Shown: in pieces, positions 3,545-60,530 of the stretch | How the letters are laid out: each line of letters starts with the position of its first letter | How positions within the stretch are numbered: position 1 is the stretch's first letter | Assembly: GCA_951406725.2 (NCBI GenBank) | Contig: CATOCA020000001.1 | Coordinates: 4,340,001 to 4,404,000, forward strand | Direction of reading: 5' to 3' | Source: Octopus vulgaris | Lineage: Eukaryota | DNA length: 64,000 nucleotides | Notes under the pieces: generated by a model | What the model was told of the DNA's origin: nothing | Databases searched by the model: none | The model's input: only the letters and a program-made list of their open reading frames with translations | Position numbers and translations under genes: made by a program

Positions 3545-4823
3545 TTGGGTCTGCAACTAAGTTCCCGCCGTTTTTTTAAATTTTGGGATTTATTGCGTTT
3601 TTAAATTTTGGAATCTATTATTTTCGAGAATGCTATTTTTGAATCATTTTGGAATCTATTTTGCTTTTTTTTTTTCTAGTTAATTTTAGTTAATTTTTGT
3701 TTATTTTCAGATCGTTAATGAAAGACGAGCATTTTCGTCACTTCCTTCTTTTTGCTTTTAATCAAGGCTATAAGGCCGCAAAAGCTGCTCGCGACATTTG
3801 TGCTGAGTATGGAGAGGGTGCCATAGCTGAAAGATGAAAGAACCGCTCGTATGCCAAGTTCAAAGATGGAAATTTTGACCTCAAAGACGCACCTTGTTCT
3901 GGCCGTCCAGTTGAGTTCGATGAAGAGCGATTAAACCAACTTTTGCAGGAAAATTCTCGTCAAACGACAAGGGAACTGGCAGAGAAAATGGAATGCTCCA
4001 CACTGCTATAAAGAAGCATCTTCACTCGATGGGAAAGGTTCAGAAGTATGGGGCATGGGTTCCGCATGCTTTAAGTGACAATAAAAATCAACGAGCCACA
4101 ATCTCCACTGGTTTTCTTGCTCGTCACCACTCAACTCATGGATACAAGCAACGATTTCTTTACCGGATCGTTACTGGCGACGAAAAATGGTGCCTGTACA
4201 TCAATATGAAGCAGCGTAAGGAATGGCTTAGCCCCGGTAAACAAGCGACACCGCGCGTGAAACAAGATCTTCATCCGCGTAAAACGATCTTGTACGTATG
4301 GTGGGACTGGGAAGGGATTATCCATCACGAATTGCTTGAACGGAACCAAACGGTCAACGCGGAACTCTATGTTCAAGAGATGGAACGACTCAACACGGCT
4401 ATTCAAGAGAAAAGACCTAATCGGCAGCATGGAGTTCTTCTGCTGCACGACAACGCCCGCCCTCATATCGCCAATATGACCAAGGAAGTCATTCAAACAC
4501 ATGGCTGTAAAGTGCTGCCACACCCGCCGTACTCTCCTGATTTGGCACAGACGGATTTCCACCTCTTTCGATCTCTTTCAAGTGATATGCGCGGAGTTTC
4601 GTTCAATACTGATGCAGAATTGAGAGCTTGGTTGGATCAATTTTTCGAGTCGAAATCGGATGATTTCTACCAACGAGGTATTGAAAATCTTGTTGAACGT
4701 TGGGAATAAGTTATAAACAACACGGATGGAATATATTATTGAATAATTGGTTGTTATTTTTTATTAAACTTTTTAAAAAATGTAAAATTTTAAAAAACGG
4801 CGAGAACTTAGTTGCCAACCCAA
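3545..4823 (+). mobile_element. Full-length mariner (DD34D-type) DNA transposon with a frameshifted transposase
   Basis: TA TSDs at 3543-44 and 4824-25; TIRs TTGGGTCTGCAACTAAGTTCCCGCCGTTTTT / AAAAACGGCGAGAACTTAGTTGCCAACCCAA; ~1.28 kb. Confidence 0.95.
3718..4709 (+). pseudogene. Mariner transposase, disrupted in the N-terminal HTH region
   Basis: Motifs WVPHAL, IVTGDEKW, LLHDNARPH and HPPYSPDLAQTDFHLF in ORF 3993-4709; the N-terminus is in other frames with a stop. Confidence 0.9.
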
Positions 4824-5629
4824 TACATATAAGACGCAGACACATATCGTGTACCTGTAATTCAAAAGAGCCAACCATGCCATATTCTATTGAAACGCAT
4901 TTTCTTACTGCTCTACTACTTCTTGTTTCTGAACTTGACGGGAAATACTAAAATACGGGCTAGGCTCAATACATTTTGCTTTTGGAAAGAATAGGAAAAG
5001 CAGAAATTTGAAAAGTAATAGGAATTCATTTGTAAAAAATATTTTGGTTGAAGTAAAATATTTTCTTTTTATTCTTCTTGTTTATTCTTATTTCTTTATT
5101 CCCTACACGGGGCTAAACATAGAGAGGACACACAAGGACAGACAAACGGATTAAGTCGATTATATCGACCCCAGTGCGTAACTGGTACTTAATTTATCGA
5201 TCCCGAAAGGATTAAAGGCAAAGACAACCTCGGCGGAATTTGAACTCAGAACGTAACGGCAGACGAAATACGGTTACGCATTTCGCCCGGCGTGCTAACG
5301 TTTCTGCCAGCTCGCCGCCTTTGATAGAAAATTGAAATGTCGAACAACATTGAATAAAGCAGTTAAAAAATATAACCTACCAAGGAACATACAGTAACCA
5401 CTGTGAAATTCGAACCAACTTGTCTGCTGGCTACCTTGTACAAAATAAAGAAAATGTCGTTTGTCAGATTTTTAAATTCTCTCTCTACCCTTCCACCTCT
5501 TACCGCCACTCATTCATCTACTGTTATTTCTGTTTATTGGAAGAGGAAATTTGTAGTTGTGATTGGTTATGTCTATAAATTAGACACACTTCTGTCTCTC
5601 TTGTGAATTCTCATCATTTGCAACACCAC

Positions 5630-7565
5630 ACAGCTGCCAATGCCAGTCTTCATTGAGTGTGTTGGTTAGTTATTTTGTATGTGAAAAATTTGAGAAAAAA
5701 AAACTGTTAAAAAATTGTCAAAAATTGAATCGCGCGAGGCATCTGCCGCTGCGTGTTTGAACCTTTTATAGAAGGTGTGTCGACCCTCTAGTCATGGAGA
5801 CTTACGCGGGGGTCGCCACAACAAAAAGTGACGAGTCTCTTAGAATAAGAGAAGTGTTCTTTAGAGAAGAACAATTGAAGGAATACGAGAAGTTCGTCAA
5901 AAGGGAGGGTGACAGCGTGAAGCTGGTCCCGCCTGTTGAAACAATAGAGGAGAGAAATAACAAGATGATAACGTATAGAACGCAAGATAGAAACACGAGA
6001 AAACTGGTGAGAGTGACGATTGAAGAAATAGAGAAATGTCTGGGGGACATCATGAAAAAAGCGACTTTTGTAGACAGAGGAAAGAAATATGGTACGGTGG
6101 AGGTGAGATGCGCAACAAAGGAAGTGGCGGCCTCATTAGCTTCCACTGTCCTGAAAGCCGAAAATTTCACTATGTGGCCGACGTATAAAGGAAGACGAGG
6201 GGTACGGGTAAGAGTCCCAAAGGTGCCCCCAGAAATTAAAACAGAAATGCTGGTAACAGCCATTATTGGGGCAGCAAAGGAGGAAGTAGAAATAGGGTCA
6301 ATCAAGGAGACGAACGTTGTAAATTGGAAGGGATTCGGAGTAGAGTTGTGGCTGATGGCCACAATGGAAGACATCGAAAGGTTTCCCTTCCAAATAGAAA
6401 TAGAAAACGAGAAAACAATTAGTGTAATAGTGGAGGGCAGAAAACCGAATTGCTACCTGTGCGGATCAAGAGGGCACATAAAAAAGGAATGTCCGCTGTA
6501 TGAATTCACAGCGGAGCAAAAAGAGACACAAAGTGGAGAGAAGGAAAACGAACACGAAGGAAAGAACAGCGAAAACAAGGAAAAGGAAATAACGGAGAAA
6601 CAACAAGAGAAGGGAAGTAACAGCGCACTGAAGGAAAATGAAAACAAAGGGAAGAAGATAGTAGAAAAGGAGCAAAATTCACAGGGTGCAGAAGTAGTGG
6701 AGAAGGAGCTAAGGCAGAAGCAAGAGAAAGAAAAGGAAAGTACATTAAAGGAAAGAGAAAAAGCAGGAAAAGAACAAGAGAAGGAACAGAACCAAGAGAA
6801 AGGAAAAGATGGTATGCAAAAAGGAAAAGAAACAACAGGAAAGGAACATAAGGCACAGGGTAGAGAGACGACAGACAAAGAGCCAAAAAGACAAGAGAAG
6901 GAAAAAGAAAGAAGAGAAAGCAAAAAGAGAGAAAGAGAGAAACCGAGGGAGGAGAAAAAAGAGGAAGTAAGTCCTAAGAGAAAAACTAGAGAAAACGTAG
7001 GTACGAATAGAAAATTCAAATACTATGGAACGTTGATCCATCACAGGCACTGTGAGGAGATGGAAGATTTAATAAACGTAACAAATGGATATACGTGGGT
7101 CAGGATGGGCACCGAATGGAAAGAAACAGGTGCACTCGTCCACGAGAACGACGCTGAGGCGTTCATCGAGGCAGCTGGCAAGAACGTGTCAAAACATATG
7201 AAATGCCGACTTACAAGGTGGCCACGAACGATGGAAATTTACCAAGATTTGGTAGAGATAATGGAGTTTATATAAAAGAAAAGGTATTGTGAAAACTTTA
7301 ATTTGGAAATGATAAAAAGAACTTTAAATTCTGAAAAAAAATGTTGAATTTTGTAAAATTTTTGAAATGTATGTTGAAAATGTGTAAAATGTTTTTATTT
7401 GGAAAATATTGTTGACGTAATAAAAAAAAATGACGAAATGTAACCGCTCGATTTCGGGGATCGAGTGGGCATTACACCACATTGTACAAACTTCATAATT
7501 CATTATTTATTTTCCCGATTGTATTGTCCCCTCTATGTTGGCCCCTTGTGGGTAATAATAAAATA
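5630..7565 (+). mobile_element. ORF1-only non-LTR retroelement, unit 1 of a head-to-tail array
   Basis: Bounded by the 17-bp direct repeat ATCATTTGCAACACCAC (5613, 7566); single ORF; the 3' end matches the SINE A tail. Confidence 0.8.
5794..7275 (+). CDS. L1/Tx1-like ORF1 (gag-like) protein, 493 aa: RRM-like region, CCHC zinc knuckle, K/E-rich linker, unknown C-terminal domain
   Basis: Intact ORF; VIVEGRKPNCYLCGSRGHIKKEC = CX2CX4HX4C; no RT follows. Confidence 0.8.
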   Translation: METYAGVATTKSDESLRIREVFFREEQLKEYEKFVKREGDSVKLVPPVETIEERNNKMITYRTQDRNTRKLVRVTIEEIEKCLGDIMKKATFVDRGKKYGTVEVRCATKEVAASLASTVLKAENFTMWPTYKGRRGVRVRVPKVPPEIKTEMLVTAIIGAAKEEVEIGSIKETNVVNWKGFGVELWLMATMEDIERFPFQIEIENEKTISVIVEGRKPNCYLCGSRGHIKKECPLYEFTAEQKETQSGEKENEHEGKNSENKEKEITEKQQEKGSNSALKENENKGKKIVEKEQNSQGAEVVEKELRQKQEKEKESTLKEREKAGKEQEKEQNQEKGKDGMQKGKETTGKEHKAQGRETTDKEPKRQEKEKERRESKKREREKPREEKKEEVSPKRKTRENVGTNRKFKYYGTLIHHRHCEEMEDLINVTNGYTWVRMGTEWKETGALVHENDAEAFIEAAGKNVSKHMKCRLTRWPRTMEIYQDLVEIMEFI

Positions 7566-7582
7566 ATCATTTGCAACACCAC

Positions 7583-9504
7583 ACAGCTGCCAATGCCAGT
7601 CTTCATTGAGTGTGTTGGTTAGTTATTTTGTATGTGAAAAATTTGAGAAAAAAAACTGTTAAAAATTGTCAAAAAATTGAATCGCGCGAGGCGTTTGCCG
7701 CTGCATGTTTGAACCTTTTATAGAAGGTGTGTTGACCCTCTAGTCATGGAGACTTACGCGGGGGTCGCCACAACAAAAAGTGACGAGTCACTTAGAATAA
7801 AAGAAGTGTTCTTTAGAAAAGAACAATTGAAGGAACACGAGAAGTTCGTCAAAAGGGAGGGTGACAGCGTGAAGCTGGTCCCGCCTGTTGAAACAATAGA
7901 GGAGAGAAATAACAAGATGATAACGTATAGAACGCAAGATAGAAACACGAGAAAACTGGTGAGAGTGACGATTGAAGAAATAGAGAAATGTCTGGGGGAC
8001 ATCATGAAAAAAGCGACTTTTGTAGACAGAGGAAAGAAATATGGTACGGTGGAGGTGAGATGCGCAACAAAGGAAGTGGCGGCCTCATTAGCTTCCACTG
8101 TCCTGAAAGCCGAAAATTTCACTATGTGGCCGACGTATAAAGGAAGACGAGGGGTACGGGTAAGAGTCCCAAAGGTGCCCCCAGAAATTAAAACAGAAAT
8201 GCTGGTAACAGCCATTATTGGGGCAGCAAAGGAGGAAGTAGAAATAGGGTCAATCAAGGAGACGAACGTTGTAAATTGGAAGGGATTCGGAGTAGAGTTG
8301 TGGCTGATGGCCACAATGGAAGACATCGAAAGGTTTCCCTTCCAAATAGAAATAGAAAACGAGAAAACAATTAGTGTAATAGTGGAGGGCAGAAAACCGA
8401 ATTGCTACCTGTGCGGATCAAGAGGGCACATAAAAAGGAATGTCCGCTGTATGAATTCACAGCGGAGCAAAAAGAGACACAAAGTGGAGAGAAGGAAAAC
8501 GAACACGAAGGAAAGAACAGCGAAAACAAGGAAAAGGAAATAACGGAGAAACAACAAGAGAAGGGAAGTAACAGCGCACTGAAGGAAAATGAAAACAAAG
8601 GGAAGAAGATAGTAGAAAAGGAGCAAAATTCACAGGGTGCAGAAGTAGTGGAGAAGGAGCTAAGGCAGAAGCAAGAGAAAGAAAAGGAAAGTACATTAAA
8701 GGAAAGAGAAAAAGCAGGAAAAGAACAAGAGAAGGAACAGAACCAAGAGAAAGGAAAAGATGGTATGCAAAAAGGAAAAGAAACAACAGGAAAGGAACAT
8801 AAGGCACAGGGTAGAGAGACGACAGACAAAGAGCCAAAAAGACAAGAGAAGGAAAAAGAAAGAAGAGAAAGCAAAAAGAGAGAAAGAGAGAAACCGAGGG
8901 AGGAGAAAAAAGAGGAAGTAAGTCCTAAGAGAAAAACTAGAGAAAACGTAGGTACGAATAGAAAATTCAAATACTATGGAACGTTGATCCATCACAGGCA
9001 CTGTGAGGAGATGGAAGATTTAATAAACGTAACAAATGGATATACGTGGGTCAGGATGGGCACCGAATGGAAAGAAACAGGTGCACTCGTCCACGAGAAC
9101 GACGCTGAGGCGTTCATCGAGGCAGCTGGCAAGAACGTGTCAAAACATATGAAATGCCGACTTACAAGGTGGCCACGAACGATGGAAATTTACCAAGATT
9201 TGGTAGAGATAATGGAGTTTATATAAAAGAAAAGGTATTGTGAAAACTTTAATTTGGAAATGATAAAAAGAACTTTAAATTCTGAAAAAAAAATGTTGAA
9301 TTTTGTAAAATTTTTGAAATGTATGTTGAAAATGTGTAAAATGTTTTTATTTGGAAAATATTGTTGACGTAATAAAAAAAAATGACGAAATGTAACCGCT
9401 CGATTTCGGGGATCGAGTGGGCATTACACCACATTATACAAACTTCATAATTCATTATTTATTTTTCCCGATTGTATTGGCCCCTTGTGGGTAATAATAA
9501 AATA
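7583..9504 (+). mobile_element. ORF1-only retroelement, unit 2 (near-identical to unit 1; ORF 7746-9226 broken by a 1-nt deletion in an A-run at ~8431)
   Basis: Direct alignment to unit 1; ORFs 7746-8543 and 8402-9226 together reproduce the 493-aa protein. Confidence 0.85.
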
Positions 9505-9528
9505 ATCATTTGCAACACCACTAACAAT

Positions 9529-11000
9529 CCAGTCTTCATTGAGTGTGTAGTGAGTCATTATATTTTCCTCTGTTATATTCTACTGTGTTTCTGATTGACT
9601 TTGTCTGTATTGTCTGTTGCTGTACAATTATTGTAATCAGCCTTCGTGCGAGGGCTTCGTGTTCCCCCCTCCGTGGGGGAAAAACTATCATTATTGCTGC
9701 ATTTGAGGCTTGCAAAATCAAAAGCTTTTTGTCGCGGTTGTGCTAAAGGCTTGTTAAGCCAGTTTTCGGAGATGGACTCCCCCATCTCCTATTCACCCAT
9801 GTCAAGTGATGCAGGATCACCGGCGGTGTCGCCGAAGAAAAAAGAAACCCCCAGCACCAGCTAGAAAATTTTCTGAAGTAGCTGGAAAGAAAATTTAAAA
9901 AATTAACACTGAAAACCTGCAGAAATACGCAGACTGTTTGATAAAAGAGGGCACAGGAGTAACGGTGGTTACGAATGCCCAAAAGCAAGAAGAGATTGAT
10001 AAAAAAAGAATAATATACAAGACTTTCAACATCACAAGTAAGTCTATACAAAGAATAGAGGAGAAAAAAATAGAAAACTGCCTAAAGCCGATATGGGATA
10101 AGATTACGTACATCAATCGCGGGAAGAAATACGGCACAGTGGAAGTGAGATTTGAAACGGAGGAAGTAGCCAAAAAGCTATCCATGGAACCCATGAAAGC
10201 GGAGAATATTGTTCTCCTCCCCCTGTATAGAGGCAAAAGAACCTTAACAATGGACAATATTCCGCCAGAAGCGGACGCCACATGTCTGGTGGCAGCAGTT
10301 ATGGTAGGCCTGGAGGAAAAAATAAACATCCTCCTGGCCACAGTAGAGGAGGAAGAAAATTGGAAAGGGCAGCGTATAACGATAGCCATCCAGACAGAGA
10401 TACAAACCCTGGAAGAGATTCCGGAGACACTGAAAATCAGTGAGGAGGAAAGAGTCAGTCTTTGTAGAGGGCAGAAAGCCGAGGTGCTTCGGCTGCGGTA
10501 AGAAAGGGCATGTAAGGGCAGAATGCCAACCCAAACCGCAGGAAGCAGCTCAGTCAGGTGGAAGAACAGAAGAGGTGTCACCAGAAGCAGCGCCGGGCGG
10601 CCCAGAAGGGACGGCTGAAGGTGTGTAGGTGACAGAGGCAGCGGAACCGGCGGCGAAGGTAGCGGAGGAAACAAAGAGCGAGGAAACGTAAAATGAGGAG
10701 GGGTGGTCAAAAATCACAAGGAAAAAAAGAAAAACTGAAACCACCCCTCCGAAAGTAAACCAAAAGAAAAAAAGAGTCTTTGGACTCATTTATGGCCATT
10801 AAGGTCTCAAATAATAGACTCGGTAATGTGTTTGCAGCTATGGCCAAGGTAGAAAAAATTGGAAGAAAAAATGATTACATATTGTATAGAACAAGGGGAG
10901 CGACCCCTCATACCCACTCCAAGAAACGTGTTTCAAATTGGCGCACCTTGGCAATTTTTTTTTTTTTACTTTTTAGTTACCTATATTAAGTTTCGTACAT
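9529..11000 (+). pseudogene. Diverged, degraded paralogous ORF1 element (third member of the array)
   Basis: Shares the 5' motif CCAGTCTTCATTGAGTGTG; protein fragments INRGKKYGTVEVRF and VFVEGRKPRCFGCGKKGHVRAEC; several stops and frameshifts. Confidence 0.8.
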
Positions 11001-43110: not shown

Positions 43111-44926
43111 TTCCTGTATGTATGTATGTATGTATGCATGCATGTATGTGCATATATGAGTATGTCTATAACAATAATATATGCATACATATGCATATAT
43201 ATTATATATTTATATATGTATACACACATAGATACATACATACATGTATATACACACACATACATACATGCATACATACATACATGCATACACACCCATA
43301 CCTACATACATACATGCATACACACCCATACATACATGCATACATACCCATACATGCATGCATACGTACATACATACATGCATGCATGCATACATGCATA
43401 CATACATACATACATACTCACAAACGCATACACATGTCATATGTGTGTATTGAATAAATTTGAATAATTGTGTGTATGTGTGTGTGTGTGCATTTGCGTG
43501 TGTGTTTGTGAGTGTGTGTGCGCGCGCGCGCGACAGAAAGACAGACAGAGAATGAGATTGAAGCATCTACTTTCTAATCCAAAGTAATATAATTGTTTCC
43601 ATATTGTGTTTATGACGTCACAATATCGTTGACGTTTTTTTTTTTTTTTCGTGAGATTTGATTTGAAAACTCTTCAGTCTCTTTCAACCTTTCTCGGTGA
43701 TTAGAGGCTAGGGAATGTGTGCGCCAGAGGGCGTACCCAGACATCTGAAGACTAGGGTGAAGTAACAGACATCTTCAGCTTGCTTTTATGTTTGTGAGGT
43801 TGTTTTATGCACCTTTGAGTTCTTAAGCACCCAATCTAACATGCTGGTTGGTAGCATAACATAGTTACAAGGTTTCCGGTAGCATTCCTGTACCCGGATG
43901 AACTGTTAACCAGGCCATTTCAGGAGAGAAAACCTGGGGGTTCCAACCAGAAACATATACCTCACTCGCAATACATTCCATAATATATTTTATTATAAAT
44001 AGTGAGAAAGTAAAGAATGTGACGTTAAATAATAAAGATGATGGAAACGAAATACTGCTTCCTCAAGTTATAATCATTCGTGTGTCAAGAAAATATACTT
44101 ATAAACATGGTAAGTATTTAAATGAATATAAAAAATATTGTCTGTTGCTATTAAACTGTTTGAAGATCTTTTAAGAGATTTTTTTTTATAGTAAAGCAAA
44201 ATAAATTCTTCATTAGATGTTCGATATTCTGCTTATATCACTATTTTTTGTTCCTTCTCGAGTCATGCCTGGCTCATGAGGGTCGGTTTCCCTCTTTCAT
44301 TGGCGTATAGGTTCCCTACCTGGACAGGATACCGGTCCCTCGCATGTGAGCTGCTAGATGCAGGAGGAAAGTGTAAGAGGAAGTTGTGGTGAAAGAATCA
44401 GCGAAAGTTAACTATTTCATTACCTTCTGCCGGAGCCACGTGGTGCTTATGTGTTTTGCTCATAAACCATAAACACACTGTGGTGTGTGGTGAAGGAGTG
44501 TGACGGATGGGGGAGAGCGGAAGTGGGGCTTGGGGAGAATGAGATGGACTGGGCAACAGGTGGACGTGTTTGCCAATGAGCTTAGAAGACTGGCTAAATT
44601 GGCGGGTTATGAGGGAGTGTAGCGAGTGTGTGCGATTTGAATATAGAGGCACCTACCTTCTCTTCGTGGTGACGGAGATCCTCCCGAGATGGCTGGTCCT
44701 TCCTCACAGCCCCTACCCGAACACTAACGATAGCAGCTGCTAGCCCCAAACCCTTTAGCGACTTCCTCGCACGTCTTGTCACCAGCACAACCCACGTTGG
44801 AAAGGTCAACTTCCGCCCCCTGCGCGCGCTTGACGGCTGACCCCTTCCGCTTGCCCCAGCTTCCGGTCAACGCACCCCGCTGGCTGACGTCCTGCTGCTG
44901 ACGTCATCCCACACGCCACCCTGATC

Positions 44927-47797
44927 TTAAAGATCACAATCTCTCCGCTCCATGTTGTAGTCTACCATCAAACCGGGAGAACGCCTTGCTCGTTGAGATC
45001 TTCTCAAGCTGGGCTCCTCACTCTCCCCCTCTCCCGAATCATCGTCCGTCGAAGTAACAATCCTGCGAAGGTCCAAGACATGTCGTGGTGTGCCATCTAC
45101 GGATACGTTGCTTCTGGAATTGATCGCCGTCACCGTTCCTCTGCTCCATTGAGACGTACAGCGCGCCTTTGGTGGCTTGACCCAGACTTCCTCCCCTATT
45201 TTCACGCGAACGGGTCCCTTCTCTTCCTCGTGACCCTCCGGCGCTTTGCTCGGGTGCCTCCATTCATATTTGAACACAGCTCTCTGCGGCACAGATTCCT
45301 CAGCCTGTCCGGATCGGGGAGACAAGTTGTACCAAAACACTTCTTCAAGCGGCGAAATGTGCCCTCTTTCCGCTATGGCCTTGACTGTCCGATGGTGCCT
45401 CTCCACGATCCCGTTACCGCCCGGCCTATACGCTGCTCTGAACAAGCGTCGCACGTTCCACCGATCAAGCATAACCCTCAATGCTTCCGAACGAAACGCC
45501 GCCCCGTTGTCCATCAGTAGTTCTTCCACGGGACCTCTCTCTAAAAATATCCCGTTCAGGAACTGCACGATCTCGTCAGCAATGCCCGATCTCAACTCCC
45601 TCCAAATGGCCAGCCGGCCCGGCCCACAGTCGACCATGGAGAGGTACATTCGCTGACGGTAGTGTGTCACATCCACAGCTAGCCTTTTCCAGTTCTGCTC
45701 CACGGAAAGGCTTCCCTGTTCATGCCCACACGGAGCAGGGTCGATGGACTGACACCTGTCGCAGCTCCCGACCACCTTCTGGACGCTTCTCCTGGTCACG
45801 TCAGCATCAATCTTTTTTGCCAGATACAGGGTCCTGTCCACACCCAGGTGATGCATAGCGTGCAGTTTCTTCAGTTCAGAGTCATCCAACCGACACGCCG
45901 CAGCTATCCCTTTCCGGGCCTCCTCCGGTTCTTCTAACCACGCCCTTTTCACCCTGGTCAGTACGTCCGCCTTGTTTTTCTCCGAAGACACGAAGACCAC
46001 GTTCAGCTTCAGTCCGAATTCGGCGATCAATTCACCTAGAACTCCTAGACGGCGCTTCACTAACATCTCCGCAGCACCTTTCGTCCGCACTCTCCTGTCA
46101 CCGGTGATCACCGATCCTACCCAGCCAAGCACAGTGGCCGAATCCGTCCGCATTTCAATCGTGCGCAGCCCCCATTTCAAGGCCAAGTTCACCCCTTTCA
46201 GCAGCGCGTCTAATTCGGCGACATTGATGTGGTTGAAATCATCTGCTTTCCGAAGCCAGGCCGCGTCCTCCACCGCAGTGCCTTCGATTGCCAACACCAC
46301 CCCTATCGCTATACTGCTAGCATCACACCAGACGGTCCCGCATTTCGTCTTGGGCACGTACCAGTTCCCCTCACCGGGTCTTCCGCTCTGTCCTCTCTAG
46401 GATCTCCTGCATCATCGCCACCGTCCCTTCTCCCACCTTGTCGCCCCACCTCTCTCCTTCTGCTCGTCTCTTGGTGTAACTACACGCCGTGCGCAGCCAT
46501 CCAGCGATCGGGTAGTGACCGACCAACTTCCCACACACCGAGAACAGCTATCTCCTACTGACGCTGGAACTCAGCTCTGAGATTTCATTTCCTCTCCGGA
46601 ACACCAATTCACCTGATCTATCTCTTCGCAGCTTCAGCCCCAGCGCGGCTCCCCTTCAATCGACTCCGGTGGCTTAGCAACCAGTCCGAACTTCTCCAGA
46701 TGTCTCACTACCTCGTCGGCTGGCACTACAGTTTCGTCCACCAAAATGTCGTCAATGTAGGAGCTGGTGGCCTTCCTAATCTTGCCGTTTTTCCCTAGGA
46801 CGGACCTAAGCACTGCCGCCATGATCTTCGGAGCGGAATTCAGCCCGAAACCCAGCCTGGTTAGACAGTACGTCCGGCCCTTGTACCGCACCAGCTGATA
46901 TCGCCATAGTTTGTCGCACACATGGAGCTGCAAGTCGACAATCGTCGCTGCCTCAGTCGACTGTCTCCACTTACGTAATGCCTCACCACAAACGTCTGTC
47001 GCCTCACCTCCCGTGTGACACGATATGTGCTGGTTTAGCTCCCTGAAGTCCAGCACCGGTCTGACTTTTCCCTTCGTAGGCTGCACCACCGCCATCAGGG
47101 GTAGCACTCCGCCCCGCTACCTCCTCCTTCCAAGGGACAAGGACCCCTTCCTCGATCCACCTCTCCACCTCTCCACCTCGTCTTCAAACCCAACCCTGGC
47201 GTGGCCTTTCAGGGTATGCTGGTAACAGCTCACCCTGTTCTCCAGTGTCGGGGGCTCGTCCTTCCATTTCCACTCTATCGTCCACCGCTGACCATCGAAC
47301 GCCGTCTGGAAGTCTTTGTCCTCGATGGTGTAAGCGGCGCAGTCCCTCGTGGGGCTCTGCTCCCTCTGGCGATCCTGACTCGCAGTGCACGACGCCCCCA
47401 CGCTTCCGAACGTGACCTCATTTCCCACAACACTGACGCCACCGAGGCAGTTGATGGTGTCCATCCCCATCACCACATCAACTCCATTTATCACGCGTTC
47501 GGCCACAATTGCCTGTAGCCTTAGCGTCGCGCCGCGCACCACTATCTCTACCTTGCTGCTGCCTCTGCAACGGATTTCGCTGCCGTCGACCGCCCGGACA
47601 CTACACACCCCGTTCCATTCCTTCGTCACCCTCGAAGTCACCAGGGTGGTCGTACAGCCCGTATCCACAAGGGCCTTGAACGTCTCCCCCTCGGCCTCCA
47701 CGTCAATCAATGGCAGCGTCTCCAATAGCGCCTCTACTCGTTTGAGGGGAAAGTTCGAGAGGCAGCAACTTCCCCGCGGTCGTTTCCCTGGCCGCAA
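44927..47797 (-). pseudogene. pol: pol of element X (protease, RT, RNase H, integrase), frameshifted
   Basis: ALVDTGC; RLGFGLNSAP and SYIDDILV; WCDASSIAIG, INVAELDA, TDSATV; HHLGVDRT..CDRC, VDVTHY, MDNGAAF, NGIVERHHRTVK. Confidence 0.92.
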
Positions 47798-48498
47798 TCA
47801 CGGGCAATATGCCCTGTCTGCCTGCATCGATAGCAAACGGGCCCCGGCTGCGTACAGTCCCGCGCCATGTGCGGTCCCTGGCATCTAAAACATCGTCCTG
47901 AGAACGGCCGCTCTCGTTGCACGGTGTGCTTCTGTACCTCTTTCTCGGGACGTCGTCCATCTTTACGCGCCTCCGTCACCGCCATCGCTATCGCCTTCCG
48001 CCCAGAGTGTCTCGTCAACGCGCGAGCATGAGTTACAAGTTCGCTCAATGGCATCTTTTTGACCCCGGGCAGTCGTTGTAGGTGAATCCCTACATCGTCG
48101 GGGAACCCATTCACGAACGCCAGTCGGGCTGCTCTCTCCAGTTCTTCTCCGGCAAACCCGGCCAGAGTCGCTAGCCTTCAAGCTTCCGATGCAAAATCAT
48201 CCACCTGGCCTCCCGTCCACCTGATTGCACCTAGCTTAGCGAAAGCTGTGTACTCGCATTCCGTGTATGCGTCACACAAGCGCCGCTCTATATTCTCATC
48301 GCAGAGCCGTTCTTCGACATCCATCTCTAGGTAAAGCGACAACGCACTCCCTTCCAAATACAGCGCCATAAGACTCGCCACGTCGCTTATGCCCTGCAGT
48401 CTCGCCACCAGCCTGATTTTCTGAATCCAGGCCACTACATCGCCTTCGCCGTTAAAAGGTCTGACGACGTCACTGGCGATCCTAATTTTTGCAGACAT
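47734..48498 (-). pseudogene. gag: gag of element X with two zinc knuckles (one frameshift at ~48180)
   Basis: PFNGEGDVVAWIQK...LYLEGSALSLY; CFRCQGPHMARDC and CYRCRQTGHIARDC. Confidence 0.88.
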
Positions 48499-48531
48499 CG
48501 TGTTGAAAAAAAATGTGAATGTTTACGAACT

Positions 48532-48543
48532 GCCGATATAGCT
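48532..48543 (-). promoter_or_regulatory. Non-canonical primer-binding site of element X (AGCTATATCGGC)
   Basis: Directly abuts the 5' LTR end (...ACTACA); 11/12 complementary to the tRNA-Phe 5' end GCCGAAATAGCT. Confidence 0.7.
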
Positions 48544-51500
48544 TGTAGTGAGTGTGTGCGATTTGAATATAGAGGCACCTACCTTCTCTTCGTGGTGACG
48601 AAGATCCTCCCGAGATGGCTGGTCCTTCCTCACAGCCCCTACCCGAACACTAACAATAGCAGCTGCTAGCCCCAAACCCTTTAGCGACTTCCTCGCACGT
48701 CTTGTCACCAGCACAACCCACGTTGGAAAGGTCAACTTCAGCCCCCTGCGCACGCTTGACAGCTGACCCCTTCCGCTTGCCCCAGCTTCCGGTCAACGCA
48801 CCCGCTGGCTGACGTCCTGCTGCTGACGTCATCCCACAGGAGAGTCGCTAGAACGGACGATTAGGTTAGCGTTCGTGACCGGCTTTCCCGACATCATGTC
48901 GGTCAAGCTACAGAAGCTCCCGAACGTGCGTTCGATGCCGATGGCCGATATCATGTCGGGGGCACGTGTACTGGTTTCGTGCAGCAGGTTGACGTCGGTA
49001 GCAGCGACTGTAACGTCGAAAAGTGGCCCAGCTAGGAGCAGCGGAGAGGGGCTGAGGAAAGAACGTGTGCGACTATTCATAGGATAGTGTTTCCGGTGCC
49101 AAGGTCCACACATGGTCCGTGACTGCGCGTCGCCCAAGCCTGAGGTGATTTGCAACCGGTGTCGAGAGCCAGGGCATGTAGCCAGCGAGTGTCTGCGGGG
49201 AAACGGACCGCGGGAGACTACTGCGCCGGTAGTCGTCCCTTTGGATTAGTAGCGGCGCGTTTATCATCGCTACCTGTGGTCGACATTCTGGTGAAGGGGA
49301 AGATGTCGCGAGCCCTGGTGGACACGGGCTGTACAACGACCCTGATAACTACGGAAGTGGCATCCACCAGAATGTCGTCAATGTATGAATTGGTGGCCCT
49401 TTTTACTCTGTCCACCTTTCCCAGGATGGCCTTGAGAATTGTTGCCATAATCTTCGGCGCTGAATTCAGCCCGAATCCCAACCTGGTCAGACAGTACGTC
49501 CGGTCCCATACCTGACGAGCTGGTACTTCCATAATTTCTCAGCACATGCACCTGTAGGTATGCCGACTTTAAATCGACAATCGTGGAGGCCCCCGTCGTC
49601 TGCCTCCACTCTCGCAAGGTGTCTCCGCAGACATCCGTGGCCTCACCGCCTGTATGACACGACACGTGGTCATTCAGCTCTCGGAAGTCAAGCACTGGTC
49701 TGACCTTATGCTTTGTGGGCTGTATCACCGCCATCAGTGGCAGGACTCCGCTCTCTTCTTTTTCCCAACGGATCAGTATGCCCTCCTTAATCCACCGCTC
49801 CACCTCCCCCTCGAACTCACTTCTGGCATCTCCTTTTAGAGTATGCTGCTAGCAGCCCACTTTATTCTTTAACATCGGGGCTCTCCCTTCCACTGCCACT
49901 CCACTGTCCACCTCTTGCCATCAATGACGGCCCGAAAATACTGGTCTTCAATGGTGTGCGCCGCATCCTTTTCCTCACGGTTGTCGTCGGTGCACGGTCT
50001 CGCCCTACACGGTTTCCCCGCTAACCCAAACGTTACGCCAGCCTCGTTGACGATGACACCTCCCAAGCGGGTGATTGCATCCATCCCCATCACCACGTCA
50101 ATCTCGTCCACCAAGTGACCAACCACAATTGCTCGCAACGTCAGCTGTAGTCCCTGCACCACAATCTGCGCATCCGTAACCCCTTCGCAGTGCACTTCTC
50201 TTCCGTCGACTGCCCTAACACTGCTTCCTCCACTCCACGGATGTGCTGAGAGAAATGCTTGATGAGTGCAAGGTCAACCGCTTCTTTAGGGCGGCATACC
50301 GGCCAAGTGGAAACGGGGTGGTGGAAAGGCATCATCGTACCATGAAGGCCATGGCAGAGAGGGGTCACATTTCACCAGTCGAGGCCGTGTTTTGGTACAA
50401 TATGTCGCCCAGATCAGGACAGGCTGAGGAGTCGGTGCCACACAGGGCAATATTCAGGTACGAGTGGAGGCATCCGTGTACTACATCAATGCGACCCGGG
50501 GCAGAGGAAGAGCACGCCTTCGTGCAGGTCGGCGAGGAAGTCTGGGTAAAAACCCCAAACGCACGGTGTACATCGCAATGGGGAAAGGGGACAATAACCT
50601 CCGTAAATTCAAAGAATAACATCTCGGTCGATGGTATGCCACGCCACGTTTTGGACATACGGAGGATTGTCCATGCCCCAGAGGATGGGGCCAGCAGCAG
50701 TGGGCAAGACGAAAACAACAGACAGGATGACAGGGTCGGCAGCAACACGTCAGGAACAAGTCCTAGGGTCGCACTGCGACCACAGAGGGAGCGGCACCCT
50801 CCTCCCTGGTTGGCTGATTATGAAACCAGTTTCAGGTGCGGGAGTGAGTGCGGAAGCCGGTTCAGTGATCTGTAGATCAGGGGGGCGTGTGGTGTGTGGT
50901 GAAGGAGTGTGACGGATGGGGGAGAGCGGAAGTGGGGCTTGCAGGGCTTGCAGGGCGCATGCGCCGGAGGAAGCGGAAGTGACAGGCAGAACGCACGTGC
51001 GGCATTGAGGAGTTGCGGCAGACAGGACGAAGGGACCAGACGAGCGAGTTGGCTAAAAGCGATCCATGTTCATCTCCGACGAGGTAAGACCCAATTACAT
51101 TTCCATTCTCCCTTTTTCTGTTGTACTCCTTTCACCGTTCACACTACACACACACATCCCCCGGTCTGAGATTCGAACCCGCCAATTCTCGACCGCGAGT
51201 CCGCTGTTCTAACCACTAGGTTATGTGCCTCCACTATTCCGCTTATACTTACCACTATTGTTGCAATCATAAGAACACATAAAACATTGGTTGCAAATGT
51301 GTGTGTGCGTGTGTGCGTGTGTGTGTGAGAGTGTGTATGGGTGTGTGTGTGTGTTTCTTGTGAGTGTGTATGCGTGCGTGTGTTTTTGTGTTTGATGTGT
51401 GTGCGTGAGCGTGTATGTTTGTTGTGAGTGTGTGTATGTGAGCGTGAGTGTGTGTATGTTTGTTGTGAGTGTGTATGTGTGCGTGTGTGTTTGTTTGATG

Positions 51501-52600
51501 TGTGTGCGTGAGTGTGTATGTTTGTTGTTAGTGTGTGTATGTGTGCGTGAGTGTGTGTATGTTTGTTGTGAGTGTTTGTGTTTGTGCTTGATGTGTGTGC
51601 GTGAGTGTGTATGTCTGTTGTGAGTGTGTGTATGTGTGCGTGAGCGTGTGTATGTTTGTTGTGAGTGTGTATGTGTGCGTGTGTGTTTGTTTGATGTGTG
51701 TGCGTGAGTGTGTATGTTTGTTGTTAGTGTGTGTTTGTGTGTGTGTGTTTGTTGTGTGTGTATGTGTGCGTGTGTGTTTGTGTTTGTGCTTGATGTGTAT
51801 GTGTGTATGTGTGCGTGAGTGTGTGTGTGTTTGTTGTGAGTGTGTATGTGTGCGTGTGTATGTGTGCTTGTGTGTGTGTAGATGTGTGTATCTATTGGTC
51901 TCCTTCAGTCATTCTCTATCTCTCTGTCTTCATCATCCCGCCAGACACGCATTTTGAGTCAATCTACGAACGTGTGTTTGATTGCTGTGTGTGCGTGTAT
52001 GCATGCGCGCTCGCAGGCGCGTTTTTTTTGCGTCTGCTTCTGTGCATGTGCGTAGACTACCAAGATGATGTGCGTGGCAGAAACGTTAGCACGCCGGGCG
52101 AAATGCATATCCGTATTTCGTCTGCCGTTACGTTCTGAGTTTAAATTCCACCGAGGTCGACTTTGCCTTTCATCCTTTCGGGGTCGATAAATTAAGTACC
52201 AGTTACGCACTGGGGTCGATATAATCGACTTAATCCGTTTGTCTGTCTTTGTTTGTCCCCTCTGTGTTTAGCCCCTTATGGGTTGTAAAGAAATGCATAT
52301 ATGTATTATGTAAGCACGTATGTATATGCTTGTATATGTGGTGTGATGGTGAAGGAGTGTGACAGAAGGGGGCGGAAGGGGGGCTTGCAGGTCTTGCAGG
52401 GCGCATGCGCGGGCGGAAGCGGAAGTGACAGACAGAACGCACGTGCGGCAATGACCAGTTGCGCTAGACACGACGAAGACACCGAGAAGACACGACGCGA
52501 GCGAGTTGGCTAAAGGCGATCCGAGTTCATCTTCGGCCAGGTAAGACCCAATTACATTTCCATTCCTTTCCTTGTTCTGTTGTACTCTTTTCATACTACA

Positions 52601-52612
52601 AGCTATTTCGGC
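52601..52612 (+). promoter_or_regulatory. Non-canonical primer-binding site of family Y (AGCTATTTCGGC)
   Basis: Directly abuts the LTR end ...ACTACA; exact reverse complement of GCCGAAATAGCT, nt 1-12 of metazoan cytosolic tRNA-Phe(GAA) as known from human and Drosophila. Confidence 0.75.
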
Positions 52613-53356
52613 AAATAATCACTCGGTTTCGTAAAAAATAAAAATAGAAAATTATGCAGAGTGCTATGGTTTCACGCGAGCCTATAACACCGTTTTGCGG
52701 CGACACCGATGTGGTCGCTTGGTTGAAGAGGGTAAAGTTGGTGGCGAAGCTCCACGGTATAGCTGACCTGGCTAGTTTTATGCCGTTGTATTTGGATGGC
52801 CCGGCCTTGGCGTTATATTTAGAGATGGAGGAGACGGACCAACTCAAGGCAGATAAAGTGGAGATCCGACTTATGGAGGCCTTCGCGGAATGAATATTTG
52901 AAGCGTACGCTCGGCTGGGTAGAATGAGATGGACCGGACAACAGGTGGACGTGTTCGCCGGTGAGCTTAGAAGGTTGGCTAAACTGGCGGGATATGAGGG
53001 AGAGTCGCTAGAACGGACGGTTAGGTTAGCGTTCGTGACCGGCTTTCCCGACATCATGTCGGTCGAGCTACAGAAGCTCCCGAACGTGCGTTCGATGCCG
53101 ATGGCCGATATCATATCGCGGGAACGTGTACTGGTTTCGTGCAGCAGGTTGACGTCGGTAGCAGCGACTGTAACGTCGAAAAGTGGCCCAGCTAGGAGCA
53201 ACGGAGAGGGCTGAGGAAAGAACGCGTGCGATCGTTCAAAGGACAGTGTTTCCGGTGCCAAGGCCCACACATGGTCCGCGACTGCGCGTCGCCCAAGCCT
53301 GAGGTGATTTGCTACCGGTGTCGAGAGCCAGGGCATGTAGCCAGCGAGTGTCTGCG

Positions 53357-53400
53357 GGGAAACGGACCGCGAGAGACTACTGCGCCGGTAGTTGTCCCTT
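53357..53400 (+). promoter_or_regulatory. -1 ribosomal frameshift signal between gag and pol (G GGA AAC plus downstream hairpin)
   Basis: The heptamer is in the gag frame and pol is in the -1 frame; the same heptamer occurs in X (47782-47788, minus) and Y1 (~49198); hairpin GACTAC...GTAGT(C/T). Confidence 0.8.
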
Positions 53401-56400
53401 TGGATTAGTAGCGGCGCGTTTATCATCGTTACCTGTGGTCGACATTCTGGTGAAGGGGAAGATGTCGCGAGCCCTGGTGGACACGGGCTGTACGACGACC
53501 CTGATGACCACAGAAGTGGCAGAGACGTGGAGTGGAGGAAGCAGTGTTAGGGCAGTTGACGGAAGAGAAGTTCATTGCGAAGGGGTTACGGATGCGCAGA
53601 TTGTGGTGCAGGGACTACAGCTGACGTTGCAAGCGATTGTGGTTGGTCACTTGGTGGACGAGATCGACGTGGTGATGGGGATGGAGGCAATCACCCGTTT
53701 GGGAGGTGTCACCGTCAACGAGGCTGGCGTAACGTTTGGGTTAGCGGGGAAGCCATGTAGGGCGAGACCACGCACCGACGACAACCGTGAGGAAAAGGAT
53801 GCGGCGCACACCATTGAAGACCAGGATTTTAGGGCTGTCTTTGATGGCGAGAGGTGGACAGTGGAGTGGCACTGGAAGGGAGAGCCCCGTGTTAAAGAAT
53901 AAAGTGGGCTGCTAGCAGCATACTCTAAAAGGAGATGCCAGAAGTGAGTTCGAGGGGGAGATGGAGCGGTGGATTAAGGAGGGCATACTGATCCCCTGGG
54001 AAAAAGAAGAGAGCGGAGTCCTGCCACTGATGGCGGTGATACAGCCCACAAAGCGTAAGGTCAGGCCAGTGCTCGACTTCCGAGAGCTGAATGACCACGT
54101 GTCGTGTCATACAGGCGGCGAGGCCACGGATGTCTGCGGAGACACCTTGCGAGAGTGGAGGCAGACGACGGGGGCCTCCACGATTGTCGATTTAAAGTCG
54201 GCATACCTTCAGGTGCATGTGGATGAGAAACTACGGAAGTACCAGCTCGGCAGGTATAGGGGCCGGACGTACTGTCTGACCAGGTTGGGATTCGGGCTGA
54301 ATTCAGCGCCGAAGATTATGGCAACAATTCTCAAAGCCATCCTGGGGAAGGTGGACAGAGTAAAAAGGGCCACCAATTCATACATCGACGACATTCTGGT
54401 GGATGAAACCGTGATACCAGCAACGGAGGTCATAGGCCACCTGAAGAGTTTGGGACTGATCGCCAAGCCGCCAGAGGCTATGGAGGGAGGTGCTGCACTG
54501 GGCCTCAAGCTATGGAGGACAAGGCCGGCGCCTTGGTGTTCCGGCGAGGGAATGAGGTCCCTGAACTGGACGCCAGCATGAGTAGACGGGAACTGTTCTC
54601 TGTGTGTGGGAAGCTGGTGGGACACTACCCGATTGCAGGCTGGCTCCGGACAGCATGTAGCTTCATCAAGAGACGAGCCGAAGGAGTGAAGTGGAATGAT
54701 AAAGTGGGGGAGAGGACAATCGACATGATGCAGGAAGTCTTGGTCAGAGTAGGAGCAGAGGACCCGGTGAGGGGCAGCTGGTATGTTCCCAAATCAAGAG
54801 AGCGGGATCGTATGGTGTGACGCCAGTAGCATCGCAATAGGGGTCGTCTTGGAAGTGGGAGGTGTCACGGTGGAAGATGCGGCCTGGCTCAGGAAGATGG
54901 ATGACTGCAATCACATCAACGAGGCGGAGTTGGATGCCGTGCTGAAGGGGGTGAACCTAGCCTTGAAGTGGGGGTTGCACACCATAGAAATCAGGACTGA
55001 TTCAGCCACTGTACTTGGTTGGGCGACAGCAGTCATCACCGATGAGAGGAGGTGCGGACCAAAGGGGCTGCAGAGATGCTGGTAAAGCGTCGATTAGGAA
55101 TACTGCGTGAACTAACCACTGAGTTCAATCTGAAGCTGAGCGTGATCTTTGTGCCTTCCGAGAAGAACAGGGCAGACGTCCTGATTAGGGTAAAGCGAGC
55201 CTGGTTGCAGGTGCCAGAGGATGTCAAGCTGGATGTAGCTACAGTATGCCGTCTGAGCGACTCGGAGTTACGGAGACTGCACACCATACATCACATGGGT
55301 GTGGACAGGACATTGTTCCTGGCCAGAAAAGTTGACTCCGACGTAACAAGACAGAGCGTGCAGAGAGTTGTTAGCAGTTGTGACAGGTGCCAGTCCATCG
55401 ACACTGCTCCGGTCGTGCATGAAGCGGGAAGTATTCCAGTGGACCAGGACTGGAGACGAATGGCGGTGGACATAACACACTACCGGCAGGGGACATACCT
55501 CTCAATAGTTGACTGCGGACCGGAGAGGTTCGCCATATGGAGGGAGGTGAAGTCGGGAACCGCAGAAGAAATTGTGAAAGTGTTGAATGAGATATTCCTG
55601 GAACGAGGCCCCGTGGATGAACTGCTTCTGGACAATGGCACTGCGTTTCGCTCGGATATGCTGAGAGAAATGCTTGATGAGTGGAAGGTCAAACGCTTCT
55701 TCAGGGCGGCATACCGGCCAAGTGGAAACGGGGTGGTGGAAAGGCATCATCGTACCATCAATGCCATGGCAGAGAGGGTCACATTTCACCAGTCGAGGCC
55801 GTGTTTTGGTACAATATGTCGCCCAGATCTGGACAGGCTGAGGAGTCGGTGCCACACAGGGCAATATTCAGGTACGAGTGGAGGCATCCGTGTACTACAT
55901 CAATGCGACCCGGGGCAGAGGAAGAGCACACCTTCGTGCAGGTCGGGGAGGAAGTCTGGGTAAAACCCCCAAACGCACGGTGTACATCGCAATGGGGAAA
56001 GGGGACAATAACCTCCGTAAATTCAAAGAATAATATCTCGGTCGATGGTATGCCACGCCACGTTTTGGACATACGGAGGATTGTCCATGCCCCTGAGGAT
56101 GGGGCCAGCAGCAGTGGGCAAGACGAAAACAACAGACAGGATGACGAGGTCGGCAGCAACACACCAGAAACAAGTCCTAGGGTCGCACTGCGACCACAGA
56201 GGAGCGGCACCCTTCTCCCTGGTTGGCTGATTATGAAACCAGTTTCAGGTGCGGGAGTGAGTGAGGAAGCCGGTTCAGTGATCTATAGATCAGGGGGGCG
56301 TGTGGTTTGATGGTGAAGGAGTGTGACGGTATGGGGGGAGCGGAAGTGGGGCTTGCAGGTCTTGCAGGGCGTATGCGCGGGCGGAAGCGGAAGTGACAGA

Positions 56401-56566
56401 CAGAACGCACGTGCGGCATTGACCAGTTGCGCCTGACACGACGAAGACACCGAGAAGACACAACGCGAGCGAGTTGGCTAAAGGCGATCCGAGTTCATCT
56501 CCGGCCAGGTAAGACCCAATTACATTTCCATTCCTTTCCTTGTTCTGTTCACCATTCATACTACAG

Positions 56567-56599
<33 letters not shown>

Positions 56600-58790: not shown

Positions 58791-60530
58791 AGCTTATGAG
58801 CTGTGGCCATGCTGGGGCACCGCCATTTGGTGTTGCTACTTGGTTTCACTTCATGGAGGCTTTCTAGCAACTGCTATTTGGTGCATGAGAGAGTTCGATG
58901 CAGCTGCCCTCATCTGCCCCTCCTGCCGTGAAGTTGGTTCATCTGGGACACCTGACAGGAAGAGATCCAGCTCCATTTTAAAGACATCTGTATCCACCCC
59001 ATGCAGGTCACTCAGGTTCTTCGGGAGGATATTGAAGAGCTGTGGGCCTCGGAAGCCCAGGCTATCACAGAATCTTGTCCTACATCTTGATGGCAAGTTT
59101 GGAGTCCTAGGCACCACGCAGTGGCGCCCAGTTCTGGCATTTGCGTAACTCTCGATGCCAAAGTTCAGGACACTTCCCTCCAGGATCTTCCAGATGTATA
59201 TTATGGCATATCTTTCCCGCCTACGCTCCAGGGAATATAATTTTAATCTCTTGAGTCTTTCCCAGTAGCTTACATTCTGCATAGAGGCTATCTTCTTCGT
59301 GTAGCTTCGTTGGATCGCCTCAAGTTCTGTGATCAACTTGACACTGGATGGTGACCATAGCTGAGAGCAATAGTCAAAGTGGCTTAGGACAAGTGTCTTC
59401 CAGAGGACCATCATGGTTTCTTGTTCTCTTGTTCTAAAGGTTCTAAGAATCCATCCTGCCAGCCGTCTGCATTTCATTGTCAGTTTAGCAACTTGTACAT
59501 GAAAGGTCGCGTCATCACTCATGTGAATACCCAGGTCACGCACTGATTGTGCCTCTGGGATTGCAATCCCTCCGGGTCCAGTGTATTCCTTGGGTATTGC
59601 ATTCAGTTTTGCATGCTGATAGTATAAAGCTTGAAACTTTTCAGCATTGAACTGCATGCTATTCTTTTCAGCCCACTTGTATATTTCGTCCAGCTCATAT
59701 TGCAGGTGCTTAGTGTCTTCAGGGTTCTGTATTGCCTGTGAAACTTTTGTATCATCTGCATAACTTGTGATTGTGGCTCTCCGCGTGGCTGAGGGCATGT
59801 CTGAGAGGGCCATTATGAACAGTAGTGGTCCCAAAACAGTGCCCTGTGGAACACCGCTCACTATTTGCGTGCTAATGGAAGTGGCCCCATTGGCTACTAC
59901 CACCTGACTTCTATCTTTCAGAAAGTCATGAAGCCATTCTCCCAGTTTTCCAACTATGTTGAGATCACGCAGTTTGTGACATATCATTCCATGATCGACT
60001 TTATCAAAGGCCTTTGCAAAGTCGAGATATATCACTTCCACATTTGAGTGGTTGAGCAGCCGTTTCAGCACCCAGTCATAGTGTTGTAGGAGCTGAGTTA
60101 AACAGCTTCTCCCTGGTCGGAAACCATGTTGGGTGTCGGGCAGCAAGTCATTTTCTTCAAGGAAGGTGATCAGTTTCCTTCTGACTATTCGTTCCATGAC
60201 CTTGCTGATGTGTGAGGTCAGAGAGATAGGTCTGTAGTTCTTGGCCTCCGCTCTGCTACCTCATTTATGAATGGACCTTCCTTCAGTTTTCTAGGAAGTT
60301 TGCCAGCTGCAAGAAAGCTCTGAAAGAGGAACTGCAGTGGTCTTGCTAGGAATCTCTTACATGCTTTTAGGAGGATTGCCAGGAATCAATCGGGACCAGT
60401 AGCTGAGTCTGTTTTAATTTCATCTATAGCCTTTATTACATCGTCTTCCTTTATATCGATGTAAACTATCGTCGCCGCCTCTGATTTTATATCTGCAGTG
60501 GTAAAGAAGTCAGTTGGATTGGTGATTTGG
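58762..60530 (-). mobile_element. 5'-truncated CR1/L2-group LINE (RT and C-terminal domain, ORF 58851-60197), with 3' UTR stem-loop and (AATC)n tail
   Basis: QHGFRPGRSC, YLDFAKAFDKVDH, SGVPQGTVLGPLLF, YADD, YSLERRRERY. Confidence 0.92.

Follow-up and report, generated by a model that had tools for sequence, protein, structure and literature searches.

A conserved site antisense to the 5' end of tRNA-Phe at the LTR edge of a retrotransposon family from Octopus vulgaris and other invertebrates, and its possible role in priming

The window, i.e., the whole analysed stretch of 64,000 nucleotides of Octopus vulgaris DNA, contains two near-full-length LTR elements, Y on the forward strand (52337-56565) and X on the reverse strand (48838-44618). 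Their features, together with those of a third, rearranged copy, are as follows.

52332-52336 and 56566-56570: target duplication of element Y, 5 bases; the surrounding DNA is microsatellite-rich
52337..52600, +: 5' LTR of element Y with TG...CA ends
52601..52612, +: putative primer-binding site of element Y, 12/12 antisense to tRNA-Phe(GAA) nt 1-12, zero spacer
52654..53405, +: gag of element Y with zinc knuckles, broken copy
53357-53363, +: GGGAAAC in the gag/pol frame overlap of element Y, candidate -1 frameshift site (presumed role)
53432..56202, +: pol of element Y (protease, RT with YIDD, DUF7047, RNase H, integrase), broken copy
56292..56300, +: polypurine tract of element Y
56301..56565, +: 3' LTR of element Y
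48544..48838, -: 5' LTR of element X; the element has a 4-base target duplication and sits within a Y-type copy
48532..48543, -: putative primer-binding site of element X, 11/12
47737..48498, -: gag of element X, broken copy
44957..47797, -: pol of element X (protease, RT, RNase H, integrase), broken copy
44914..44922, -: polypurine tract of element X
44618..44913, -: 3' LTR of element X
48839..51140, +: rearranged Y-type copy split by X, with its left piece at 44479-44617, an inverted pol segment and an LTR at ~50888-51140

The hallmarks of LTR elements are present, namely, paired LTRs with TG...CA ends, a short target duplication, and a polypurine tract. A gag with a zinc knuckle is followed by protease, RT, RNase H, and then integrase, which is a Ty3/gypsy-type layout; according to Pfam matches in other genomic copies, the full order is zinc knuckle, protease, RT, DUF7047, RNase H, integrase. 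The two LTRs are identical in 247 of 268 columns in Y and in 289 of 296 columns in X (48838-48544, partner 44913-44618). The internal regions of X and Y are 69% common over 2.9 kb. A sequence-only reading of the window had described two families with unlike LTRs and a common boundary motif, and this description holds: the LTRs of X and Y agree in just 155 of 325 columns, and AGCTATTTCGGC and AGCTATATCGGC stand behind the respective 5' LTRs.

The composite of X inside the Y-type copy was found again, along with its flanks (window 43670-49223), on another contig (locus L088, 97% over 5.6 kb), and opposed junction sites are clustered 5-9 kb apart on contigs C18, C27, and C28, suggesting that a larger unit including the composite has been multiplied. 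In both LTR types a splice-donor-like site lies 40-65 bases ahead of the LTR end (52539-52602 on the forward strand; ~48585-48542 on the reverse strand), and the stretch after it, pyrimidine-rich in Y, runs to the AG that opens the primer site; a small intron splitting this site in spliced RNA is possible.

Nucleotides 52601-52612 of the forward strand read AGCTATTTCGGC and directly adjoin the 5' LTR end of Y; nucleotides 48543-48532 of the reverse strand, adjoining the 5' LTR end of X, read AGCTATATCGGC, with one change from AGCTATTTCGGC. The former is the exact antisense of nucleotides 1-12 of the tRNA-Phe(GAA) genes of the host. The 5' motif of this tRNA has 94 matches in the host genome against none in the control, and at all 15 motif loci examined tRNA-Phe(GAA) was called, its start coinciding with the first base of the motif in 14 cases and lying one base earlier in one, so that the proposed match to the tRNA-Phe 5' end is borne out in the host itself. 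An 18-base pattern spanning the junction gives 101 matches in the genome and none in the control. Assuming 60 tRNA types and 9 kb of other RNA, a given 12-mer would be antisense to one of the tRNA 5' ends with a chance of ~4e-6, and to tRNAs plus rRNAs at any position with a chance of ~8e-4. The site, real and family-wide, can pair with the tRNA at its 5' end only: nucleotide 12 falls at the LTR edge and G1 furthest from it, and the tRNA-Phe 3' end is unable to pair here. The 12-base duplex has a predicted energy of -23.7 kcal/mol, compared with -16.8 for the acceptor stem of the tRNA (20 C). Apart from the site, element Y and six other copies contain no antisense matches of 10 or more bases to tRNA-Phe, and no second tRNA-Phe site conserved over more than 9 bases was seen elsewhere in the element. 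Pairing of tRNA nucleotides 14-20 with the LTR end is predicted at the window junctions, where it is indistinguishable from the integrase attachment sequence.

The mismatch of X is a private change. Among the 100 junction matches listed, 99 have the perfect 12-mer and the single variant is the window site at 48543; moreover, the duplicate of the X insertion with the same flanks (L088) has 12/12, as do the sister copies. Hence, the GCCGATA isodecoder that had been proposed as the partner of X is needless, and the search for it gave two genome matches and no tRNA calls. Nor did the supposed mimicry of the tRNA 3' strand by TTTCGGCA, which includes one extra A, stand up as support: the base behind the 12-mer is A in only 12 of the 30 copies described below (C in 10, G in five, T in three) and in 16 of 33 relatives, and since this A is unconserved, the mimicry provides no separate evidence.

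Conservation within the host genome was assessed on the best 30 of 150 scored RT matches, chosen without regard to the motif. The site stands at the LTR end in 27 of these copies, 26 times exactly; the other three have no site within the 700 bases scanned, one of them having a site nearer the RT. In 20 longer regions (19 from the RT list and one from the motif list), the site abuts the LTR in 19, with zero to two mismatches. Of the 17 copies with two LTRs, 15 are flanked by a perfect 5-base target duplication; this defines the LTR edge and leaves no spacer before the site. A loose pattern of the site matches the genome 980 times against 201 in the control. Forty such matches were fetched, and gag (45-99% identity) lies behind 12 of 13 perfect sites and three of six one-mismatch (TTT) sites, two of the one-mismatch sites preceding a gag only 45-47% like that of the window. 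We rejected the AGCTATATCGGC-type matches as a second primer class, as none of the 21 fetched non-TT loci has gag behind it and 19 of them represent one unrelated repeat. An abundant gag-less repeat (loci L309-L324, L328, L345-L348) holds an internal 11/12 look-alike of the site.

The family extends well beyond the octopus. At least 845 proteins belong or are close to it (E<=1e-40, 8000 candidates scored); the best named homologue is from Argonauta, the named members come from cephalopods, gastropods, crustaceans, and a sea spider, and a search with longer fused forms added one further named host. Using RNase H and integrase peptides, we collected 78 loci, 75 from metagenomes and three from MAGs, and found no relatives in viral contigs; the relatives from metagenomes share 38-56% pol identity. 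AAGCTAT precedes gag in all 37 of these 78 loci that have a gag start and DNA ahead of it, while the full site pattern occurs in one of 1850 shuffled sequences. Eight of nine gag queries had been read from the ATG behind a site, and hence eight of the 37 loci are not independent; six locus pairs are near-duplicates. With 27 of 30 RT-selected host copies and 37 of 37 readable relatives, the motif proves to be conserved at the LTR boundary, as had been supposed. The element contigs found inside two bacterial MAGs (L171-L173) belong to this animal-type family and are probably contamination.

As for its placement, the RT and RNase H of the family give weak matches or none to the customary gypsy models of Pfam, and DUF7047 is present (53432-56202, family alignment); PF17917 and PF17919 have no match in two pol proteins or among 120 listed homologues. 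Most rows of the alignment have YIDD at the RT active site, with YVDD, YLDD, and FIDD as variants, and what we take to be the four acidic positions of RNase H are kept. The closest solved structures are retroviral (MMTV-type) integrases, the RT resembling retroviral RTs only weakly; the Atlas feature neighbours of pol are mixed. These comparisons suggest that the family may be a separate LTR lineage, for which we found no name. Family motifs are absent from the searchable supplements of surveys of molluscs and annelids, and primer sites are not mentioned in the accessible text of either survey (PMC6238403, PMC8556966).

Troyka elements and Kuafuorterviruses, according to the accessible parts of PMC12440569 and PMC11673190, are likewise compact invertebrate LTR elements with the order PR-RT-RH-IN and a divergent RT. 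Troyka, as far as the text of PMC12440569 is available, ends in CG...CG, makes duplications of 3 bases, and combines [ILV]ADD with a long zinc knuckle, in contrast to TG...CA, 5-base duplications, YIDD, and ordinary knuckles here. Since termini, duplication length, and RT motif all differ, membership in Troyka/Kuafuorterviridae was rejected; the parts of PMC12440569 and PMC11673190 examined do not mention a primer site, and the family peptides are absent from the accessible supplement of the latter.

The distribution of changes within the site is far from uniform. In 33 distinct elements, positions 1-6 are invariant (AGCTAT, 33/33), positions 7 and 8 vary, position 9 is the same in 30, positions 10-12 in 31-32, and position 13 is mixed. 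Thus, conservation begins at the LTR end and ends opposite G1 of the tRNA; the variable positions face nucleotides 4-6, in the acceptor stem, and the constant ones face nucleotides 7-12 and 1-3. This site is not of the standard type complementary to a 3'-CCA end, as had been noted from the window, because it has no TGG and begins with AGCTAT in every one of the 33 elements. The types at positions 7-9 in the 37 loci are TTC (12), CGC (11, including L134 and L135, where a chance match lying upstream was set aside), CAC (five), CCC (three), and CCG (two); the remaining four loci (L141, L142, L145, and L147) deviate outside positions 7-9. Besides the five CAC loci, two end in GCG.

Two of the variants correspond to tRNA starts known from other animals. 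According to Table S1 of PMC7962491, as far as its files are accessible, planarian tRNA-Phe(GAA) genes start with the antisense of CGC, the commonest variant (11 loci; planarians are not known as hosts of CGC-type elements), and planarian tRNA-Lys(TTT) starts with the antisense of the CCG variant (two loci); a TTC-type start is absent from the files of that paper that were searched. The searched supplements of two fluke papers (PMC2770079, PMC4595467) hold no variant tRNA starts. The CAC and CCC starts, sought with a pattern requiring a tRNA-like continuation, matched only phage and bacterial tRNAs of several isotypes. No tRNA genes were found in the 58 relative-bearing loci scanned, and no eukaryote-type variant tRNA-Phe in viral contigs or in the two MAGs that hold element contigs. 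The host genome carries only the TTC type, in elements and in tRNA-Phe genes alike: variant sites are at background (three against two in the control), no tRNA-like start is of the CGC, CAC, or CCC type (0/7 matches), and one tRNA-Lys gene has a CCG-type start, with no CCG-type element seen.

Two elements with the rare CCC type, L098 and L110, both occur in runs X15, X3, and X8, and their mutual distance is about the same as their distance to the window elements; contigs part from L110 one base ahead of the site, which is what a 3' LTR should cause. On the tree (29 rows, two near-duplicates and rows shorter than 200 columns being left out) at least 10 changes of type are required, compared with 14.3 on average over 1000 shuffles; the test of a single origin for the two CCC elements gives no rejection (p-AU 0.32). 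Hence, the variant types appear both to follow kinship and to switch often, and the statement that the site follows the host rather than the lineage is only partly shown, because the variants follow the tree and a single CCC clade is not rejected. The expectation that the site co-varies with tRNA-Phe stands in so far as the variants face nucleotides 4-6 and two of them equal tRNA starts of other animals; a match within the same host is available for the Octopus vulgaris genome alone, the one in which tRNA and site were compared.

Several known priming systems resemble this arrangement in part. LTR elements begin minus-strand synthesis at the site that follows the 5' LTR, and the Tf1 primer is 11 bases long, its cut having reportedly been assigned to RNase H by Levin in 1996. 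In Tf1, Tf2, and Tj1 of the Tf1/sushi group, the outermost 5' segment of an RNA serves as primer, the site directly adjoins the LTR, and a cut is needed (PMC4600332, accessible part), and the same would apply here. Whereas Tf1/sushi elements rely on self-complementarity, the family studied here has no self-complement and no chromodomain match, and a host tRNA would act in trans. An internally cut 5' tRNA fragment, similar to the one proposed below, is used in half-tRNA priming by Drosophila copia, yeast Ty5, the fungal Helenus and Copia families, and some plant Copia elements; the primer tRNAs of copia and Ty5 are cut in the anticodon arm, according to PMC5371799 by RNase P (PMC10886601, PMC5371799, accessible text of both). 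As described there, however, half-tRNA sites pair with the anticodon stem-loop (of iMet, Tyr, Ile, and one more tRNA) and not with nucleotides 1-12 of tRNA-Phe, and reports of this mode are confined to the Copia superfamily with its passengers, whereas here the order is PR-RT-RH-IN, with the integrase not before the RT. Mouse IAP uses a tRNA of the same isotype, tRNA-Phe, by pairing with its 3' 18 bases, and no cut is needed (PMC7472051, accessible part); in contrast, the site studied here lacks TGG, and its partner is the opposite strand of the acceptor stem. The atypical primer site in PMC3286476 is, judging by the available text, an insertion of a tRNA dimer.

Taken together, the position, conservation, and complementarity of the site suggest, with a probability of about 0.75, that a 5'-terminal piece of tRNA-Phe, cut near nucleotide 12, primes minus-strand synthesis, a geometry like that of Tf1 but in trans. 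The site would bind tRNA-Phe by its 5' end, nucleotides 1-12, and the zinc knuckles of Gag would probably aid annealing, because pairing requires the acceptor stem to open, together with most of the D stem. The tRNA would then be cut at or near the duplex edge, releasing a short 5' piece whose 3'-OH would prime minus-strand DNA, the primer ending at nucleotide 12, flush with the LTR, or at nucleotide 10 if the integrase trims the last two bases. If priming does occur, the RNase H of the element is the most likely cutter, by analogy and at slightly better than even odds; cutting by a nuclease of the host, or the shortening of a longer 5' tRNA fragment from the host, would together be nearly as probable. 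The 5' tRNA fragments known from planarians, of 18, 21, 24, and 25-35 bases, are longer than the 12-base piece. We would further guess that the primer may be copied in plus-strand synthesis, so that the site could be retuned to the tRNA of a new host. This copying is the weakest step, as Ty1 and Ty3 do not inherit their sites from the primer (PMC5371799, accessible part). A wider reading, to which we give somewhat less than an even chance, is that of an overlooked widespread invertebrate lineage, possibly outside the described Metaviridae clades, whose RT/RNase H would open the acceptor stem, cut the tRNA after nucleotide 12, prime from it, copy the primer, and thereby retune the site to the tRNA-Phe of the host.

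The same sequence pattern could arise in other ways. The tRNA 5' end might bind the site in order to serve packaging, dimerisation, control of gag translation, or silencing by a 5' fragment, with a protein or de novo initiation as the primer; the gag ATG indeed often lies 0-22 bases behind the site, and accessory pairing in Ty3 involves parts of its tRNA outside the 3' end (PMC5371799, accessible text). This is unlikely, however, as the element offers no other primer site, having neither a TGG start nor another tRNA match of at least 10 bases, the site adjoins the LTR end without a gap in every lineage while the distance to the ATG ranges from 0 to more than 100 bases, and an element would not conserve a target for its own silencing. 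Slightly less likely still is that the tRNA stays intact and a 2'-OH at the edge of the duplex serves the RT as its starting point, giving a branched RNA-DNA molecule as in retrons, where 2'-OH priming is established. Such a start would require no nuclease and fits the sequence pattern equally well, but no LTR-element RT is known to prime from a 2'-OH, Tf1, copia, and Ty5 already provide examples of cut primers, and the run-off copy of a linear 12-base primer would simply explain why conservation stops sharply at G1.

That the 12-mer is a protein-binding or structural signal (an extension of the integrase attachment sequence, a nucleocapsid site, or a splice acceptor) which matches tRNA-Phe by chance seems improbable. 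The invariance of its first six bases, including an AG after a pyrimidine-rich tract, the donor-like sites upstream in both window LTR types, and the 11/12 look-alike that the unrelated gag-less repeat has by chance would agree with such a signal; at the same time, donor-like sites occur in only five of 35 relatives scanned, two variants are independently identical to the 5' ends of actual animal tRNAs, and the chance figure for a tRNA 5' end is the ~4e-6 given above. Self-priming of the Tf1 type, from the element's 5' end, a spliced LTR junction, or a spliced leader, shares the flush geometry and the length of 11-12 bases (PMC4600332, accessible part), and we consider it very improbable overall. 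Its cis forms, direct or built by splicing, are nearly ruled out: the longest complement of the site has 5 bases in the Y LTR, none of 5 is present in the X LTR, the maximum in whole elements is 6, and a complement split by GT-AG is absent from all four LTRs. Moreover, unrelated LTRs bear the same site, and, as against a spliced leader, the host tRNA already fits 12/12. The earlier argument against Tf1/sushi priming from the lack of a self-complement in the Y LTR is thus upheld, and the search of LTR, body, and splice-split complements yielded no better match in the transcript of the element itself.

The sequence-only reading was aware of no description of priming of the kind favoured here, by the 5' end of a tRNA, and we also found none in the searchable literature: no retrotransposon paper with the site was retrieved from full texts, whether by the motif itself or by its variants. 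An earlier remark on the site may exist in sources outside this scope, among them Repbase Reports, figures, bioRxiv supplements, several other supplement files, and most subscription journals. Annotation tools that seek complements of tRNA 3' ends would report no primer site in these elements, which may explain why the pattern escaped notice. The described routes of LTR priming that we found rely on the 3' end of a tRNA, on a half-tRNA produced by cutting in the anticodon arm, or on the 5' terminus of the element itself; a site for the first 12 bases of a tRNA, if true, would be a further route, linking tRNA priming with self-priming of the Tf1 type. It would offer a simple system for testing the old question of whether the element or the host cuts a primer that lacks a ready 3' end, and it predicts 5' tRNA-Phe fragments able to prime or silence elements of the family. 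In a mirrored way, 3' tRNA fragments act on mammalian ERVs (PMC7472051, accessible part).

Some minor observations concern other parts of the genome and of the window. About 45 of the tRNA-Phe 5' motifs form a head-to-tail array with a 200-base period (contig C18:30147732-30157146). In the window itself, three related open frames, one with a zinc knuckle, are stacked among SINE copies at 3924-10713, and a reverse transcriptase frame of the non-LTR (LINE) type lies on the reverse strand at 58851-60260.
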